64,000 nucleotides of DNA from Patescibacteria group bacterium. GTDB lineage: Bacteria; Patescibacteriota; Patescibacteriia; 2-12-FULL-60-25. The translations under genes and the position numbers were made by a program. Of this stretch, positions 6,665-62,356 are shown piece by piece. The notes under the pieces were generated by a model, which saw nothing but the letters and a program-made list of their open reading frames with translations, was not told where the DNA came from and ran no database searches. The DNA lies in NCBI GenBank assembly GCA_041665165.1, contig JBAYJJ010000001.1:7210-71209 (forward strand). The letters run 5' to 3'. Every line of letters starts with the position of its first letter. The first letter of the stretch is position 1.

Positions 6665-7621
6665 TTAAGAAAGAATATTTTCTAAAGTCATGGTAGCAAA
6701 AGCGATGGGATTTTGCGAGGCTTTTCTTGTGTTGATGCAAGATAAAAATTCCGACACTTCCTTCAGATACATGTTGTTGTTGTCCGCTTTTTTGAACTCA
6801 ACTATTTTTTTTGTGGTATTTTTTGTTTCCAGCCAGACTGCATTCTGGTTCATATCCCAATTCAAGCTGCCTTTTTCTCCGATGACCCTGCATTTGCGCG
6901 AGTAAGACTGCTGCAGATAATCGCAGGATACGGAACCGATGACCTTGTTCTTGAATTGATAAGCGGCAATGCACATATCCTCGGTCTGGATGCTCAATCC
7001 CCCGACCTTATCGGAAATCAGCGCGCGCTTCTGGACAGGCGAGAAACCATTCAACCAAAACAGCAGATCAAACTCATGGATATCATCCAGGATTATGCCG
7101 CCGCCCGTAGATTTTTTGGCTGCATAGTTCTTCCTGTAATCCTGATGCGGCCTCCAATACGGCAAAAAATAACCAAACTCGTGCCTGATGCTGTAGATTT
7201 TACCCAGCCTGCCTGAATCCAGGTATTTCTTGATGAAGGCTGGCCCAGGATGAAACCTTATGTTGCATCCTACCATGGTAATAAGTTTCTTCCTCTTGCA
7301 TTCGTCGCCCAGCGCCCGGACTCCGTTCAGGTTATGGGACAGTGGTTTTTCAATGAACAAATCGCACCCAGCCTTGGCGCAGATGGCAGCATGTTTGATG
7401 TGCAGGTTATTCGGCGTGCATATAAAAGCGACCTTGAATTTCTTGGCTGTCGCAATATCAAATTTCTGGATCCGGCCGATGACAGCTTGGCTATCAAAAG
7501 CCGAATCCAGCGGGTCAAAGACCGCGATATTCGTGTAGCCCAAAGCCATCAGATTGCTATAATGCCTTTTGCCGATAGACCCGAAGCCTGCGATTAAGAT
7601 TGGCGTAGATTTGCTCAGCAT
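6665..7621 (-). CDS. Gfo/Idh/MocA-family NAD(P) oxidoreductase
   Basis: The track start at 7633 is a TTG; the ATG at 7621 sits right after the pseC stop. Has the N-terminal Rossmann motif ILIAGFGSIGKRH, the EKP motif (LFIEKPL) and a C-terminal alpha/beta domain. Confidence 0.8.
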   Translation of the reverse strand: MLSKSTPILIAGFGSIGKRHYSNLMALGYTNIAVFDPLDSAFDSQAVIGRIQKFDIATAKKFKVAFICTPNNLHIKHAAICAKAGCDLFIEKPLSHNLNGVRALGDECKRKKLITMVGCNIRFHPGPAFIKKYLDSGRLGKIYSIRHEFGYFLPYWRPHQDYRKNYAAKKSTGGGIILDDIHEFDLLFWLNGFSPVQKRALISDKVGGLSIQTEDMCIAAYQFKNKVIGSVSCDYLQQSYSRKCRVIGEKGSLNWDMNQNAVWLETKNTTKKIVEFKKADNNNMYLKEVSEFLSCINTRKASQNPIAFATMTLENILS

Positions 7622-32913: not shown

Positions 32914-34101
32914 ATGGACCAAAAAGGCCTGACAATGATCCTGGTCACGAGCCAGGATTGGGGCGGCGTACAAGCCTATGTTTTGGATTTGGCTCTGGCT
33001 CTAAAGTCACGGGGTTTGCCGGTGATTGTTTGTGCAGGAAGACCCGAGAAGTTAGAAGTTAGAAGTTTGAAGTTAGACGTAGGACGAGAACTGGGCGATA
33101 AATGTCTAGAAGCAGGAATTGAGTTTATCGAGTTAAAAAGAATGATCCGTGACATTAACCCGATCTCAAATACGCGCGCTTTATTTGAATTGATCTCTTT
33201 GTTTAAAAAACATCAGCCGCATACAGTCCACTTGAACTCCAGCATGATGGGCGCAGTCGGATCTTTGGCAGCAAGAATCGCTGGTATTCAGCGCGTTGTA
33301 TATTGCATTGGCGGCTGGGCATTCAATGAGCAGATCTCCAGCTGGAAAAAAAGTCTTTACATAACAATCGAAAAAATCTCAGCGCGCTGGAAAGATGTGA
33401 TCATCTGCGTACACCCTGGCGATGAAAAACTGGCGTTGGACATAAAAATCAAACCGCGCGAAAAAGTCATGACCATCCCAAATGGCATTGACGTCAACTT
33501 ATTCCAATCTCAACTTCGTGATCGCGAAACCGCGCATTCGTTGTTAGCTGAACGATGTACGATGTACGATGTACGATGTACGGTTGTTGGCACGGTCGCC
33601 AATTCTTATCCACCGAAAAATCTTTTTTGGTATCTTGAAGTGTGCAAAACAATCACAGACAAGCACCCTGATTTCAAATTCGTGATTATCGGAGATGGCC
33701 CGCAGTTTGAAGAGTTGAAAGCCAAGCATGCGTCTCTGAATCTACAAGACAAGGTGATTCTGACAGGCCGCTTTGAATCAAAACTGCTTTACACGGCTTT
33801 TGATATTTCTGTCTTGCCTTCAACCAAAGAAGGCATGCCACTTGCAGTCTTAGAATCCATGGCTGCCAAAGTCCCCTGCGTCGTGACTGACGTCGGCGGG
33901 TGCAGATGGATGCTGCAGGACGAACAAGGCAGCGCTGGACTCGTGATCCCGCCAAACGACGACAAAGCCCTTGAGCAAGCTATCGAAAAACTTGCGTCAA
34001 ATTCCCTATTACGCCAAGAATTAAGCCAGCGCGCCTACAACCTAGTCACTGAGAAATTTAACTTGCAGGACACTCTGAACAAAACAATTGAAACACTGTG
34101 A
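32914..34101 (+). CDS. GT4 glycosyltransferase carrying two in-frame heptamer arrays
   Basis: 395 aa. MILVTSQDWGGVQAYV (an alternative start at 32935 is possible), then ...LPSTKEGMPLAVLESMAAKVPCVVTDVGG (EX7E). Two low-complexity inserts, KLEVRSLKLDVGRE and ERCTMYDVRCTVVG, are encoded by period-7 DNA. Confidence 0.8.
   Translation: MDQKGLTMILVTSQDWGGVQAYVLDLALALKSRGLPVIVCAGRPEKLEVRSLKLDVGRELGDKCLEAGIEFIELKRMIRDINPISNTRALFELISLFKKHQPHTVHLNSSMMGAVGSLAARIAGIQRVVYCIGGWAFNEQISSWKKSLYITIEKISARWKDVIICVHPGDEKLALDIKIKPREKVMTIPNGIDVNLFQSQLRDRETAHSLLAERCTMYDVRCTVVGTVANSYPPKNLFWYLEVCKTITDKHPDFKFVIIGDGPQFEELKAKHASLNLQDKVILTGRFESKLLYTAFDISVLPSTKEGMPLAVLESMAAKVPCVVTDVGGCRWMLQDEQGSAGLVIPPNDDKALEQAIEKLASNSLLRQELSQRAYNLVTEKFNLQDTLNKTIETL
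33048..33089. repeat. Heptamer array, 6 units (42 nt, in frame)
   Basis: GAAGTTA GAAGTTA GAAGTTT GAAGTTA GACGTAG GACGAGA. Confidence 0.8.
33552..33586. repeat. Heptamer array: (ACGATGT)x4 perfect plus one degenerate unit
   Basis: ACGATGT ACGATGT ACGATGT ACGATGT ACGGTTG, inside the GT4 coding frame. Confidence 0.85.
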
Positions 34102-34123
34102 TTTGCACTAGTTTCGAATCTTG

Positions 34124-34151
34124 AGTTACAAGTTACGAGCTACGAGTATTA
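34124..34151. repeat. Heptamer array in a spacer, reaching the stop codon of the convergent gene
   Basis: AGTTACA AGTTACG AGCTACG AGTATTA. The last unit contains the TAA (34149-34151, minus strand) of the Wzy_C-TPR gene. Confidence 0.7.
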
Positions 34152-58317: not shown

Positions 58318-60420
58318 CTAGTACTGCACTTCAAACATTCTGTCTTCCAGCGTATCAATTCTATATTCGTAGGCGTTATCTCCCCACTTGGCTTCTGCTT
58401 CGGCTGGGTCTGCTTTTTTGACTGTTGTCGGTAAAATTATTTTGACATCAATCTGAGTGTTGTCTGCGCCCGGTTGCTTGGGCCAATCAAGACGATAGTC
58501 GCCGCTCGTAACGTCCAGCGGCGGAAGTTGATAGGTAAAAGATAATTGACCGCTTTTGCCTGGTTCTATGGCCCAAAAAGCACCGTAGACTGTTTTGCCC
58601 AGCTCTTTCATGACATCTACTTTGCCTGCGACGAAGTTGCCGCCCGTGTTATGCAAATCATCGGCCATGGCGCCTTTGGCTGAAACAAAGGTGCTGCCAT
58701 CAGGTACATAAATGCGTGTGTAACTGCGATAGCGCGTATATCTCCAAGTGGATTGCTTGTTTGTATTCTTATAATTGAATGTGACGGTCGCTACTGGCTT
58801 TTGCGGATCGCGCGCATCCAAAACATATGAGACTGACTTTTGCATTACGCCATCAGTCTTAAGCGCCGCGAGATTCGCATCCACCACCCACAAGAAATCA
58901 CCAAGCGTTGGCTTAGCGCGCCCGCTCCAGCCATATTGATCCAGTTTTTTCTCAACATCCGCATTGCGCGAGTAGATGAGAATCTGCTTGCGGTTCAATG
59001 ACGTGGTCACAAGATCCAATAGCTCTGGCCAGCGCGACTTGGGCATATTTTGGATTTTGGCCATTATGGCCTGACCCACTTCGCCCATAAGCACCTTCCT
59101 ATCTTCGACTGAAATGCCTTGCTTGCCAAAACCGATTTCTACCTGATACTGCAAAGTATCAAAAAAGTTCTGGTCATTATATTCCTGGCCGCGGACATTT
59201 ACCGGCCCGGTTATCTTGAGTAGGGCTTCAAAAAACGCCGGCTCAAAAGCAACATAAACCGTTGGCTCAGAAATCTTGTTTCCAGCCAAGATGTTTTCTC
59301 TGGTATAAAAATCCAATACTTTATCGGCTGAAGTCGGGAAATCCGGCGACCAATTCGCATCGCGCATAAACCAAACTTTTGCCTTGAGATAATCCTGCAA
59401 AGGTTTCGGCGGAATTTCTTTCCAAGTTTGCGCTACTGGATTATCAACTTGATACACATCTGAAAAAACCATGTTCGTCATGTCCCCGCCTGTAACCTTG
59501 GCCGTGAACAAACTTCCGATAAAACCGCCCGAAGGGCGAATCTCGTCCGCATTCTGCAAAGCCACAAGATAATCTTGAGCATCTGGATAGCCAGCCAAAG
59601 GCACCATGACGTCGATCAAAGGAACGGCCTGGGTCAATGATTTTTGCATCACTGGCAAAGCATCAGCCAGTGGTTTCAAAGCTTGCTTGATGGGACCGGC
59701 GATCTGATTTTGCGGCAAAGCATTCCACAACCTGTAGGCCAAATCCATTTTGTCCCTGGCAAGCCTGATGTCTGGCAATGAATTGTATAAAACCCGAAGC
59801 AAGCTTAGTTTATTTTCCGGAGTCAGATCTTTCAGCCTGTCGCTGGGCGAAATCGGCACGCCGAGGCTATTGACTGCCTGCTGGCCAGTTGAAGCTGCAT
59901 CAAAAATCGCTGAAGCGACCTTAAGCAAATCCTCCATGCCTTCCATTGAATCCGCACTCACGACCGAGGCATCCTGCAGAATGCGCAACTGCGACCCTAT
60001 ATATGGGACATCTCTCCAAAAGCCCATGCCATTCAAAGCGACCTCCATGTTATTGAGTTCAAGTTTTGCCTTGGCCGAATACGCTTGGGCAGTGGCCATG
60101 TCCCCGGCCAGCAAAGCTGTCTGCATGTTAGAAAGCGCGACTCGGGCATTGTTGGCTGCCAAGCCAGCTTTAGCCAAAGCTATTCCCGGAGGCACGGTTG
60201 CAATCCCCAGCGCTATCACTAAAAACGCGACCACTATCCAAAAAAGCTTACGCTTCTTCCGCGGATTCGTAGCTCGTAGCTCGTAGCTCGTAGCTCGGTC
60301 TTTGTTTGTCGGCTGTGGTCTGTCGTCTGTGGTCTTAGTGTCGCGAAAAGCGTCCGCTTTGTGTGGCGGTTCGAGCTCGGGCACTCCCGGGCAAGTTAAA
60401 AAATTTGGATGCTCTTTCAT
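58318..60420 (-). CDS. DUF4012-type membrane-anchored protein
   Basis: The ATG at 60420 overlaps the upstream TAA by 1 nt (TAATG); the track start at 60540 overlaps 120 nt. It has one TM segment (LFWIVVAFLVIALGIATV) and then ...AKAGLAANNARVALSNMQTALLAGDMATAQAY..., typical of DUF4012. The N-terminal tail is encoded by a heptamer array. Confidence 0.7.
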   Translation of the reverse strand: MKEHPNFLTCPGVPELEPPHKADAFRDTKTTDDRPQPTNKDRATSYELRATNPRKKRKLFWIVVAFLVIALGIATVPPGIALAKAGLAANNARVALSNMQTALLAGDMATAQAYSAKAKLELNNMEVALNGMGFWRDVPYIGSQLRILQDASVVSADSMEGMEDLLKVASAIFDAASTGQQAVNSLGVPISPSDRLKDLTPENKLSLLRVLYNSLPDIRLARDKMDLAYRLWNALPQNQIAGPIKQALKPLADALPVMQKSLTQAVPLIDVMVPLAGYPDAQDYLVALQNADEIRPSGGFIGSLFTAKVTGGDMTNMVFSDVYQVDNPVAQTWKEIPPKPLQDYLKAKVWFMRDANWSPDFPTSADKVLDFYTRENILAGNKISEPTVYVAFEPAFFEALLKITGPVNVRGQEYNDQNFFDTLQYQVEIGFGKQGISVEDRKVLMGEVGQAIMAKIQNMPKSRWPELLDLVTTSLNRKQILIYSRNADVEKKLDQYGWSGRAKPTLGDFLWVVDANLAALKTDGVMQKSVSYVLDARDPQKPVATVTFNYKNTNKQSTWRYTRYRSYTRIYVPDGSTFVSAKGAMADDLHNTGGNFVAGKVDVMKELGKTVYGAFWAIEPGKSGQLSFTYQLPPLDVTSGDYRLDWPKQPGADNTQIDVKIILPTTVKKADPAEAEAKWGDNAYEYRIDTLEDRMFEVQY
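60267..60336. repeat. Heptamer array, 10 units, inside the DUF4012 coding sequence
   Basis: TCGTAGC x4 (perfect), then TCGGTCT TTGTTTG TCGGCTG TGGTCTG TCGTCTG TGGTCTT. On the coding strand the first block is (AGCTACG)n, the same unit as at 34138. It encodes ...TTDDRPQPTNKDRATSYELRATN.... Confidence 0.85.
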
Positions 60421-61298
60421 TAATCGATCGGACGAACGTGGGAATGCGGGTTTTTGGTCCCGCGGTACTTCCAGAAATAGTATACCGCACTTAAGATGTG
60501 TGCGCGCGCCGGCTTGTGGGTAATAAGGTGCCACGGCCAATCAATGGCACTTTCTCTTTGATGGTAATGAACAAGTTTGGCAGATGGCACATGCACCACT
60601 CTCCAGTTATAAACCCATGCCCTGCGGCAGATATCCAGCTCTTCCATGTACATGAAAAACTTTTCATCGAACACGCCAACTTCTTCCAAAGCTTTGCGCC
60701 TGATCATGATAGCCGAACCCATCATGGCATCCACTTCCAAAGGCTTTTGCTCGGACAAGACATCGCGCATGAAATAATGATGCAGATATCTTTTACCGGC
60801 CGATGTCTTACCCAAGATGGTGCGGCGGTAAAACGGCATCATGACTGTCGGGAATCTGTAGCAGGATTCTTGGCGCGTGCTATCCGGGTTATACAAAGCT
60901 GGGCCTGCCATTCCCACATCCGGGTGCGCATCCATAAACTCAACCAACTTCTCCATCTCGCCCGGAAAAATAGTGAGATCCGGATTGACTAGCATCACAT
61001 ACTCTCCCCTAGCTTGCCTTAAGGCCAGATTATTGCCCGCGCCAAAACCAACATTCCTGACAGAATCAATGACCTTGACCCACGAAAATCTTTCTTTGAC
61101 CATCTTGCCTGTGCCATCACCAACTGCGTTGTCCACCAAAAAATATTCAAAAGAAAAATCAAACTTAGCAGCCTCGGCGCCTTTGAGCAGCATACGGATA
61201 AGGCCCGGAGTGCGGAAGCAAACCGTAACAAAAGAAACTTTAGGATCAGGACCCCGCAACGGCTGTTGCGGGACTGAATTTTGGTTTATTTCGTTCAT
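60420..61298 (-). CDS. GT2 glycosyltransferase
   Basis: The track start at 61307 is a TTG; the ATG at 61298 forms an ATGA overlap with the upstream stop. Motifs are VSFVTVCFRT...YFLVDNAVGDGT...NVGFGAGNN...VMLVNPD (DxD). Confidence 0.8.
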   Translation of the reverse strand: MNEINQNSVPQQPLRGPDPKVSFVTVCFRTPGLIRMLLKGAEAAKFDFSFEYFLVDNAVGDGTGKMVKERFSWVKVIDSVRNVGFGAGNNLALRQARGEYVMLVNPDLTIFPGEMEKLVEFMDAHPDVGMAGPALYNPDSTRQESCYRFPTVMMPFYRRTILGKTSAGKRYLHHYFMRDVLSEQKPLEVDAMMGSAIMIRRKALEEVGVFDEKFFMYMEELDICRRAWVYNWRVVHVPSAKLVHYHQRESAIDWPWHLITHKPARAHILSAVYYFWKYRGTKNPHSHVRPID

Positions 61299-62356
61299 AC
61301 GAACCAAGGCCGGATTTTCTGCGCCCCCTCAGTGCAGATAGCCTTTAATTCTTTGCGCTTTTTCAGCATTTTTGGCAAACCGGCCAAAGCCGCTCCATAA
61401 CCCTTGAGCGATGACCATGAAAACAGCGCGGCAAGCATCTTACCTATTTCATACGGTAAAATCCAGAGCCCGTGCCATAAAAGGTCAGAAAAAGCCAGGT
61501 TCTTAGCCAAAACCCAGATATGATTGCGGCTCGAAAGATAGGTTACAAAAGCAGGATGCCCAAATCGCTTGAGCCAGACCGTAAAAACATTGGATCTTGG
61601 GCTGGAAGGCACACGGCGGTAGTGCCAGGCTACGGCCTTGGGCACTAAAGCTGATTTCATGCCCATGCGGCGCATGCGCCAAGCCACATCCACGTCTTCT
61701 TTATATGAATGGAAATCTTCATCAAAAAATTGACCATTGAGGCTGGAGCGCACCAAAGCTGAAGCGCGATAAAAAGCACAAGCGCCGGTCGGACCGAAAA
61801 TTTCCATTTCCTTGTCATACTGGCCCTCGTCGATTTGACCGGCTTTATCATCATAAGCGCGGCGCGCTTTTGTCATGTGTATGCCCAGCGAATCAATCAC
61901 ATTTGTTTTCTCTGTTTCTGCCCTGTCGCCAATGCCTGGACGCAAATGCGCCTTCAGAAGTTTTGGCATGGCGCTATCTATTTCCAAGTGGCTGTCCATG
62001 AAGCTGACCAATTCAAATATACAGTTTTGGTCCAGCACGATATCCGGATTGCATATCAAGATATAAGCGCGCGACAGATCTGAATCCTGCAGGCCTGAGA
62101 GAGCGAGTTGGATGGCCTGATTGTGAGCGCGCGTAAAACCATAGTTGCGCATGTTGCGCAAAACAGTCATACCCGGATATTCACTGGTCAGCCACTGCGC
62201 CACCCCATCAGTTGAGGCATTGTCCACCAAAATTATTCTATGCTGTTCGTTTTGGGCTTCAAGGCTTTCAAACAAGGATGGTAAATAAGCCATGGAGTTC
62301 CAGGCTACGATATTCACGGAAAGTCTTAGCTGATCCATATCTATTTCATGTAACAT
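61295..62356 (-). CDS. GT2 glycosyltransferase (rhamnosyltransferase-like)
   Basis: 353 aa. LSVNIVAWNS...IILVDNASTDG...NYGFTRAHNQ...ILICNPD. Confidence 0.8.
   Translation of the reverse strand: MLHEIDMDQLRLSVNIVAWNSMAYLPSLFESLEAQNEQHRIILVDNASTDGVAQWLTSEYPGMTVLRNMRNYGFTRAHNQAIQLALSGLQDSDLSRAYILICNPDIVLDQNCIFELVSFMDSHLEIDSAMPKLLKAHLRPGIGDRAETEKTNVIDSLGIHMTKARRAYDDKAGQIDEGQYDKEMEIFGPTGACAFYRASALVRSSLNGQFFDEDFHSYKEDVDVAWRMRRMGMKSALVPKAVAWHYRRVPSSPRSNVFTVWLKRFGHPAFVTYLSSRNHIWVLAKNLAFSDLLWHGLWILPYEIGKMLAALFSWSSLKGYGAALAGLPKMLKKRKELKAICTEGAQKIRPWFV

Follow-up and report, generated by a model that had tools for sequence, protein, structure and literature searches.

The 64,000-nucleotide (nt) stretch of DNA analysed here, called the window in the following, comes from contig JBAYJJ010000001.1 of assembly GCA_041665165.1 (Patescibacteria group bacterium, positions 7,210 to 71,209 of the forward strand). 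It contains a tract of tandem 7-nt repeats near the 5' end of a minus-strand gene of the DUF4012 family. The reading we prefer, with a probability of about 0.78, is that this tract is a tolerated and translated member of a class of heptamer arrays found across a lineage of Uhrbacteria-like Patescibacteria, with no demonstrated phase switch. Such arrays form with a preference for the 7-nt period, and coding DNA has been largely purged of them. They persist where the protein tolerates any hydrophilic, unstructured sequence, which in the present case is the hypervariable cytoplasmic linker of a DUF4012 auxiliary protein for envelope polysaccharides. The original prediction missed that the tract is one among hundreds of heptamer arrays in the genome.

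The tract covers 70 nt (60267-60336), that is ten heptamers in a single register, of which four are perfect (31 nt) and six are degenerate. The original prediction had described it in this way, and both Tandem Repeats Finder (TRF) and direct reading agree. The unit was there given as AGCTACG and has to be corrected to GAGCTAC, as it reads on the minus strand where the gene lies. Written out, the perfect array is C(GAGCTAC)x4 GA on the coding strand and (TCGTAGC)x4.4 on the plus strand; it corresponds to nt 124-154 of the coding sequence and encodes R42-N52, 'RATSYELRATN'. The degenerate units are, in order on the plus strand, TCGGTCT, TTGTTTG, TCGGCTG, TGGTCTG, TCGTCTG and TGGTCTT, and they encode K29-D41, 'KTTDDRPQPTNKD'. 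The proposed location was about 40 to 50 codons into the gene; the perfect part begins at codon 42 and the degenerate part at codon 29. TRF assigns to 60307-60335 both a period of 7 (81% matches) and a period of 14 (93% matches), and the best sub-period of the degenerate part is 14 nt, (TGTCGGCTGTGGTC)x2. The autocorrelation of the 70-nt tract is 0.75 at lag 7 and 0.73 at the harmonic lag 14, with all remaining lags at 0.37 or below, and when the six degenerate units are compared with the perfect one, agreement is highest in phase 0 (19/42; the other phases give 7-17/42). A chance origin can be excluded, because the probability of 24 consecutive lag-7 matches is about 4e-15 per site.

As 7 and 3 have no common factor, successive GAGCTAC units fall into each of the three reading phases in turn, which gives the 7-residue word ATSYELR. 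The orientation of the tract is explained by the unit being free of stop codons in the coding direction, the complementary strand containing TAG. In the closest relative (G020, with 91% amino acid identity in the DUF4012 protein) the degenerate second array aligns with non-repetitive sequence, which suggests that it may have been born by local duplication. No inverted partner of the array was found within 400 nt on either side, and the RNA fold at the locus is not significant (z-score -1.7). A programmed ribosomal frameshift site was considered and rejected, GAGCTAC not being of the X XXY YYZ type.

The genome holding the window (G000; 1.18 Mb in 58 contigs, 48.6% G+C) is Uhrbacteria-like and contains 47 perfect tandem repeats of at least three copies with period 7, compared to at most three for any other single period. 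When perfect runs are counted as at least 11 consecutive matches (at least 18 nt at lag 7), 112 are found at lag 7 and only 2, 3, 1, 4, 0 and 4 at lags 5, 6, 8, 9, 10 and 11, respectively. Period 7 accounts for 399 of the 919 TRF rows genome-wide, and merging gave 401 arrays with a median length of 30 nt, the longest being 76 nt. The 112 perfect arrays are built from 46 distinct units, AACGTAC being the commonest (16 arrays). The unit of the tract (canonical form ACGAGCT) is found in five separate arrays, and an identical 31-mer, CGAGCTAC...CGA, is present at C1:67476 and C9:1392.

Heptamer arrays are concentrated in the spacers. Among the 322 arrays of at least 21 nt, approximately 176 lie in 106 kb of spacers (about 1.7 per kb) against approximately 146 in 1.07 Mb of open reading frames (ORFs; about 0.14 per kb), which is a 12-fold enrichment or thereabouts, with no type of spacer strongly preferred. 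Similar arrays are found in other genomes of the genus and, in a patchy manner, across other genera of the class. A 7-nt change simulated at every array, to look for genes split there, merged reading frames at only 14 of the 322 arrays, a number compatible with joins of neighbours by chance.

The arrays are also short. The longest perfect runs are 33 nt (four units plus 3-5 nt, or 4.7 copies; examples are C1:40761, C3:9496, C9:1392, C29:9266 and C31:5234), and sorted by full units there are 65 runs with two, 27 with three, 20 with four and none with five or more, a tail which is not geometric. Two relatives with contigs of 0.7-1.3 Mb, of which 200 kb each were inspected, have longest runs of 27 and 38 nt. 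An assembly artefact behind the 33-nt limit was rejected on three grounds: the arrays are shorter than the usual assembly k-mers, no periodic sequence is present at the ends of the G000 contigs, and the arrays are similarly short in the relatives with long contigs.

Two further arrays in the window bear on what had been said about the tract. It had been called the longest perfect repeat in a coding sequence of the window, a rank which it shares with (ACGATGT)x4.4, also 31 nt (Table 1). The unit had also been said to recur in an array at 34138. This array is intergenic as claimed, situated in a 47-nt spacer between convergent genes; it has one identical unit, and is otherwise of the same RAGYTAC family and on the opposite strand. 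The glycosyltransferase-like ORF 32914-34101, in which (ACGATGT)x4.4 is translated as 'ERCTMYDVRCT', has near its 5' end yet another array, (AGAAGTT)x4.4 at 33047-33077.

The comparison with G020 provides the best view of how the array changes. The flanks of the tract are 95-98% identical in DNA, and the two arrays align unit for unit in identical codon phase with four copies each. The sequence GCT ACG AGC TAC GAG CTA CGA (ATSYELR) in G000 corresponds to GTC ACA AGT CAC AAG TCA CAA (VTSHKSQ) in G020, so that three of the seven unit positions differ, all of them by transitions and in all four copies. At the four-fold degenerate sites of the DUF4012 gene the two genomes differ with p=0.33 and d=0.44, so that the change of the unit has proceeded at roughly the neutral rate. 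Had the copies decayed independently, each array would have gathered about six substitutions in each lineage, yet both are perfect. The pattern indicates concerted evolution, or repeated renewal, without change of the copy number.

Some other arrays behave in a similar way. In 316 kb of G020 the orthologous site was located for 44 true period-7 arrays of G000. At three of these sites the array is of equal length and identical, at four it is of equal length with substitutions, at 14 there is a period-7 array of other sequence or length, and at 23 there is no period-7 array. None of the 44 differs purely by a multiple of 7 nt. An example from the equal-length group is C23:12477, at which CTTGTGA in G000 is CTTGTAA in G020, a concerted change with the length kept. 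At C34:9556 every unit is changed at one position (AAGTAGG to AAGTTGG), again with the length kept; at C45:4398, which belongs to the group with different arrays, AGTTACA is AGCTACG at equal length; and at C15:19449 a whole array is replaced by an unrelated unit at one site. The presence/absence differences inside ORFs amount to 33, 48, 39, 15, 33, 3, 39 and 45 nt; every one of these values is divisible by 3, which is what a filter for frame by selection would produce.

A DUF4012 orthologue was found in all 24 same-family genomes searched in six frames, each as one open frame with no internal stop. The linker between the motif PNFLTCP and the membrane helix is hypervariable, from 23 to 106 amino acids (aa) in 85 orthologues, and the arrays within it differ: (GTCACAA)x4 in G020, (AGTCACR)x4 followed by GGACGNN units in G010, (CCCGAAC)x4.4 in G018 and STC_25, and two or three GACGNGG arrays in G007 and C14-29. 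Many orthologues have no array in the linker, including the next-closest relative (P0004, 61% identity). At the protein level the 7-residue periodicity of the 85 linkers is weak (8 matches at lag 7 versus 3-5 at other lags); the comparison at the DNA level is preferred because a 31-nt array spans only about 1.5 peptide periods. In P0004 (L134 1385-1500, contig k141_2418029) the upstream family-2 glycosyltransferase (GT2) gene and the DUF4012 gene are separated by a 115-nt spacer and the latter starts with GTG. This spacer consists largely of heptamer arrays of the GAATTAA type and the CTACATT/CTTCATT type.

Whether the tract is translated depends on the start site of the gene. The stop codon of the preceding GT2 gene and the ATG of the DUF4012 gene at 60420 share bases (TAATG). 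The longest ORF opens further upstream, at TTG 60540, and this extension overlaps the GT2 gene. Upstream of the repeat lies the conserved motif PNFLTCP, in which N6, F7, L8, T9, C10 and P11 are each conserved in at least 90% of an alignment of 109 orthologues, and which also heads the DUF4012 gene in the genus loci. Because of this conservation and the TAATG overlap, translation begins upstream of the tract, which is coding sequence and not 5' untranslated region. A start downstream of the tract, which had been named as something to be checked, is thereby excluded. In the N-terminal region residues 1-20 read M-K-E-H-PNFLTCP-GVPELEPPH, residues 21-53 form the variable linker, 54-58 are RKKRK, and 59-83 form a hydrophobic helix; the tract encodes residues 29-52 of this 58-residue tail. 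A KKKR/RKK patch is found at the equivalent place in the orthologues and is a positive-inside signal, by which rule the tail would be cytoplasmic. The original claim that the repeat is translated as a tail ahead of the only membrane helix has in this way held up.

An AlphaFold model built from the alignment of orthologues is confident overall, with a mean predicted local distance difference test (pLDDT) score of 87 and a predicted template modelling (pTM) score of 0.83. Residues 1-56 have a pLDDT below 50, and the helix starts at residue 57 with a pLDDT of about 90; the tail residues are thus predicted to be disordered. The model (m0d22490acfdd) has long N-terminal helices followed by an alpha/beta plus a beta-rich domain. 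Foldseek searches of the PDB with it returned weak partial matches only, among them LytR-CpsA-Psr cell-wall glycopolymer ligases (template modelling score about 0.3). These matches support no claim and serve as a lead to what DUF4012 may do in glycan clusters. The N-terminal motif, more fully PNFLTCP(x)VPELP, is conserved to at least 90% in the 109 orthologues, though the linker behind it is hypervariable. It is not a lipobox and has no signal peptide ahead of it; it is probably a cytoplasmic interaction or modification motif.

Membership of the gene in the DUF4012 family follows from a match to Pfam PF13196 over residues 282-426 (E=1.3e-22, 81.3 bits against a cut-off of 28), an annotation carried by more than 100 homologues. 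Three genes lie upstream of it, two GT2 glycosyltransferases and a large membrane protein. Clusters for capsular polysaccharide (CPS) and exopolysaccharide (EPS) have been seen to include DUF4012 genes, and the family is enriched in the Candidate Phyla Radiation (CPR) and in Gram-positive bacteria (PMC6744442, PMC5412050). A second DUF4012 paralogue of about 900 aa, approximately 32% identical over the core, is found in every genome of the genus (in G000 at C28:3686-4900). The coordinates of the features are collected in Table 1.

Table 1. Features in the window, with the evidence on which each of them is based
Feature	Position	Strand	Basis
DUF4012-family gene, 700 aa	58318..60420	-	ORF list; Pfam PF13196; start conserved in orthologues
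Single N-terminal membrane helix L59-A83 (LFWIVVAFLVIALGIATVPPGIALA)	60172..60246	-	Hydrophobic stretch; AlphaFold model
Basic patch R54-K-K-R-K58, directly after the repeat and before the membrane helix	60247..60261	-	Translation
Perfect heptamer array	60267..60297	-	TRF (TCGTAGC)x4.4, 100% matches, score 62; direct reading
Six degenerate heptamers, register shared with the perfect array	60298..60336	-	TRF rows 60307-60335; phase test
Conserved N-terminal motif P5-N-F-L-T-C-P11, upstream of the repeat	60388..60408	-	Alignment; genus loci
Family-2 glycosyltransferase gene, upstream in the same operon-like run	60420..61307	-	Pfam Glycos_transf_2 1.1e-16; sequence
Perfect (ACGATGT)x4.4, 31 nt	33552-33582	+	TRF; inside ORF 32914-34101
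Intergenic array GAGTTAC AAGTTAC GAGCTAC GAG, RAGYTAC family	34123..34147	+	TRF; pattern search; ORFs

According to the reading we prefer, the array would evolve in place and in a concerted way: the unit would drift approximately neutrally, the four copies would stay mutually identical, and the copy number would stay fixed. A likely route could be transient misalignment or slippage between adjacent units combined with mismatch correction, and selection would subsequently discard those length changes which break the frame. The encoded peptide would not itself be selected, and the tract would mainly supply and diversify the length and sequence of the linker. Gain or loss of one unit would inactivate the gene, and the tract appears too short, and in the available assemblies too stable, to serve as a contingency switch. 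Several points weigh against this reading. The homogenising mechanism is one that we infer from the pattern of the sequences. The abrupt limit at about four to five copies (65, 27, 20, 0) is unlike the prediction of simple slippage. The restriction to 46 units for 112 arrays, with AACGTAC in 16 of them, is likewise unexpected under simple slippage and leaves room for a function or a dedicated process. Finally, the gene is found in a glycan-biosynthesis cluster, which is the classical setting for phase-variable genes.

This setting makes it natural to ask whether the tract is a contingency locus, at which slipped-strand mispairing adds or removes 7-nt units, shifts the frame and so turns the DUF4012 envelope protein on or off in the manner of neuO in Escherichia coli K1. 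We consider this unlikely. It is true that the tract lies in the 5' coding sequence, that the unit length is not a multiple of 3, and that altering the count by one or two units in silico produces stops at codons 53-67, ahead of the membrane helix, a change of three units being in frame. The truncation foreseen in the original prediction for a one-unit change is borne out, the stop being at codon 60 and the protein ending at residue 59. Moreover, the gene and its GT2 neighbours form part of a surface-glycan cluster, CPS/EPS loci contain DUF4012 genes (PMC6744442, PMC5412050), and heptanucleotide phase variation is established for neuO (PMC13001214). A contingency locus should, however, have many units, and the tract has 4.4 copies (four complete ones) in a genome with perfect runs of at most 33 nt, compared to 3-53 copies, most often 20, and 66% of genomes phase-OFF for neuO (PMC13001214). 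An independent contig from the Joint Genome Institute (JGI; L033), from the same population and the sole independent assembly compared, has an identical tract with four copies. G020 has exactly four copies despite the altered unit, so that, at the level of assemblies, no variation in copy number is found between G000, the JGI contig and G020, though length variants may occur in a minority of molecules. Out-of-frame alleles are absent from the 24 same-family orthologues, a length difference that is a simple multiple of 7 is seen between G000 and G020 at none of the 44 orthologous sites, and similar arrays are located at hundreds of unrelated and mostly non-coding sites. Two pattern scans of metagenome contigs (flank-N{7,37}-flank, and the conserved left flank alone) gave no further alleles. 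The phase variation implied by the original prediction finds no support in these observations. Variation at the level of reads, should it be detected, would be the first sign of phase variation by a simple sequence repeat for a surface-glycan gene in a CPR bacterium.

Another possibility is that the arrays are written or overwritten by an active process specific for period 7, such as ectopic template switching or a dedicated enzyme, or that they are kept for a function at the DNA or RNA level, for example protein binding. The coding tract would then be a product of that system and not of passive slippage. We regard this explanation as unlikely, although it would account for several features: the limited set of units common to dispersed loci (the identical 31-mer at C1:67476 and C9:1392, and AACGTAC), the sharp limit at about 4.4-4.7 copies with its non-geometric length distribution, the concerted and length-neutral changes, the whole arrays swapped in place for unrelated units as at C15:19449, and the repeated striking of one linker across several lineages. 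Against it, no candidate enzyme or template was identified; the arrays of G000 and G020 share codon phase and differ by transitions only, at an approximately neutral rate, which fits evolution in place; the second array resembles the product of a local 14-nt duplication, G020 having non-repetitive sequence at this place; and the locus has no hairpin partner and no significant RNA structure. The somewhat broader proposition that the lineage may possess a length-neutral homogenising or rewriting process specific for period 7, or a selected role of arrays of four to five heptamers at the nucleic-acid level, seems to us improbable as well, if a shade less so. Were it true, a rewriting process would repeatedly overwrite permissive linkers, here the cytoplasmic tail of an envelope-polysaccharide protein, with the four copies changing jointly and count and frame kept, and the limit near 31-33 nt together with the small shared vocabulary of units would be signatures of rewriting and not of ordinary slippage. 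Finally, we give hardly any credence to the idea that selection acts on the heptad peptide (ATSYELR)n as a functional motif in the cytoplasmic tail, with the DNA periodicity as a by-product. The tract is in frame and hydrophilic, and it adjoins the conserved motif and the basic patch. Yet the peptide is not kept even in the 91%-identical orthologue (VTSHKSQ) and is absent or unrelated in most of the 85 orthologues, 31 nt hold no more than about 1.5 periods of the peptide, non-coding spacers contain identical DNA units, and the region is predicted to be disordered.

Taken by itself, a tolerated and translated heptamer tract of this sort is an ordinary instance of a repeat class, and it matters mainly as guidance for annotation: the true start of the gene is the ATG at 60420 and not a downstream GTG, and the heptad peptide is a repeat-derived linker and not a domain. 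The public gene call Ga0376277_0061227 on the JGI contig (L033 1335-3251) starts at a GTG inside the membrane helix and gives 638 aa. On identical DNA this call loses both the conserved N-terminal motif and the repeat, and it is probably a mis-called start. The notion that this 638-aa member (P0003) represents a frameshift allele was rejected, as the L033 DNA is identical through the tract and the downstream GTG was chosen by the gene caller. Seen together with the genome-wide pattern, the tract is a clean example of heptamer arrays diversifying disordered linkers of envelope proteins in ultra-small bacteria. The locus also documents length-neutral concerted evolution, three of the seven unit positions having changed over a neutral divergence of 0.44 while both lineages kept four identical copies.

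Short heptamer repeats have been described in several other bacteria; no published description of heptamer arrays in Patescibacteria was found in the literature. Among the long simple-sequence repeats (LSSRs) of prokaryotes rich in repeats, those with heptanucleotide units form the most abundant class, and it has been proposed that they originate when the polymerase slips over a 7-nt contact (Mrazek, Guo & Shah 2007, as summarised in PMC4679880). The tract consists, like these, of tandem direct 7-nt repeats, head to tail and beyond chance; in G000, too, period 7 is by far the most over-represented, and the occurrence is sporadic and lineage-specific. Compared to the LSSRs as they are presented in that summary, the arrays described here are found in Patescibacteria, do not exceed about 4.7 copies, are built from dozens of units, and are in many cases translated in frame.

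In marine Beggiatoaceae, in cyanobacteria and in Bacteroidetes, TAACTGA is found in sets of 2-6 copies, most of which lie between genes; where copies fall inside ORFs, they are located at the peripheries of proteins (MacGregor 2015, PMC4679880). These sets and the short tandemly repeated repetitive (STRR) heptamers of cyanobacteria resemble the present arrays in being short and mostly intergenic, in having an in-ORF minority located outside recognised domains where it is tolerated, and in that only the stop-free orientation is coding. In the TAACTGA/STRR systems one or a few units dominate and related heptamers are rarely repeated, whereas no such dominance is seen among the 46 units of the 112 arrays here. 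TAACTGA arrays cluster just upstream of start codons, in contrast to the G000 arrays with their lack of a strong preference for any type of spacer. GAGCTAC is unrelated to TAACTGA, which was not seen as an array in G000, where the nearest unit is AACTGAC.

Rickettsia palindromic elements are dispersed palindromic sequences of about 100-150 bp which insert as units, in frame, at permissive sites in proteins. They are similar to the present arrays in that repeat material found genome-wide is translated within host proteins at permissive sites; the difference is that we are here dealing with a short tandem heptamer array which apparently arises and evolves in place.

A further tract to compare is that of neuO in E. 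coli K1, where the heptanucleotide AAGACTC is present in 3-53 copies, two thirds of the genomes have the gene in the OFF phase, and cultures show measurable slippage (PMC13001214). Both genes have a 7-nt unit in the 5' coding region of a surface-glycan gene, translated in all three phases into a heptad peptide, and in both a length change which is not a multiple of 3 abolishes full-length translation. Unlike neuO, the DUF4012 tract has four copies, no variant among the assemblies and no out-of-frame orthologue, and it is one array of hundreds. The tract fits the known class of heptamer repeats, and it differs from the members described before in its host lineage, its many unit types, its tight limit on length and its length-neutral concerted change.

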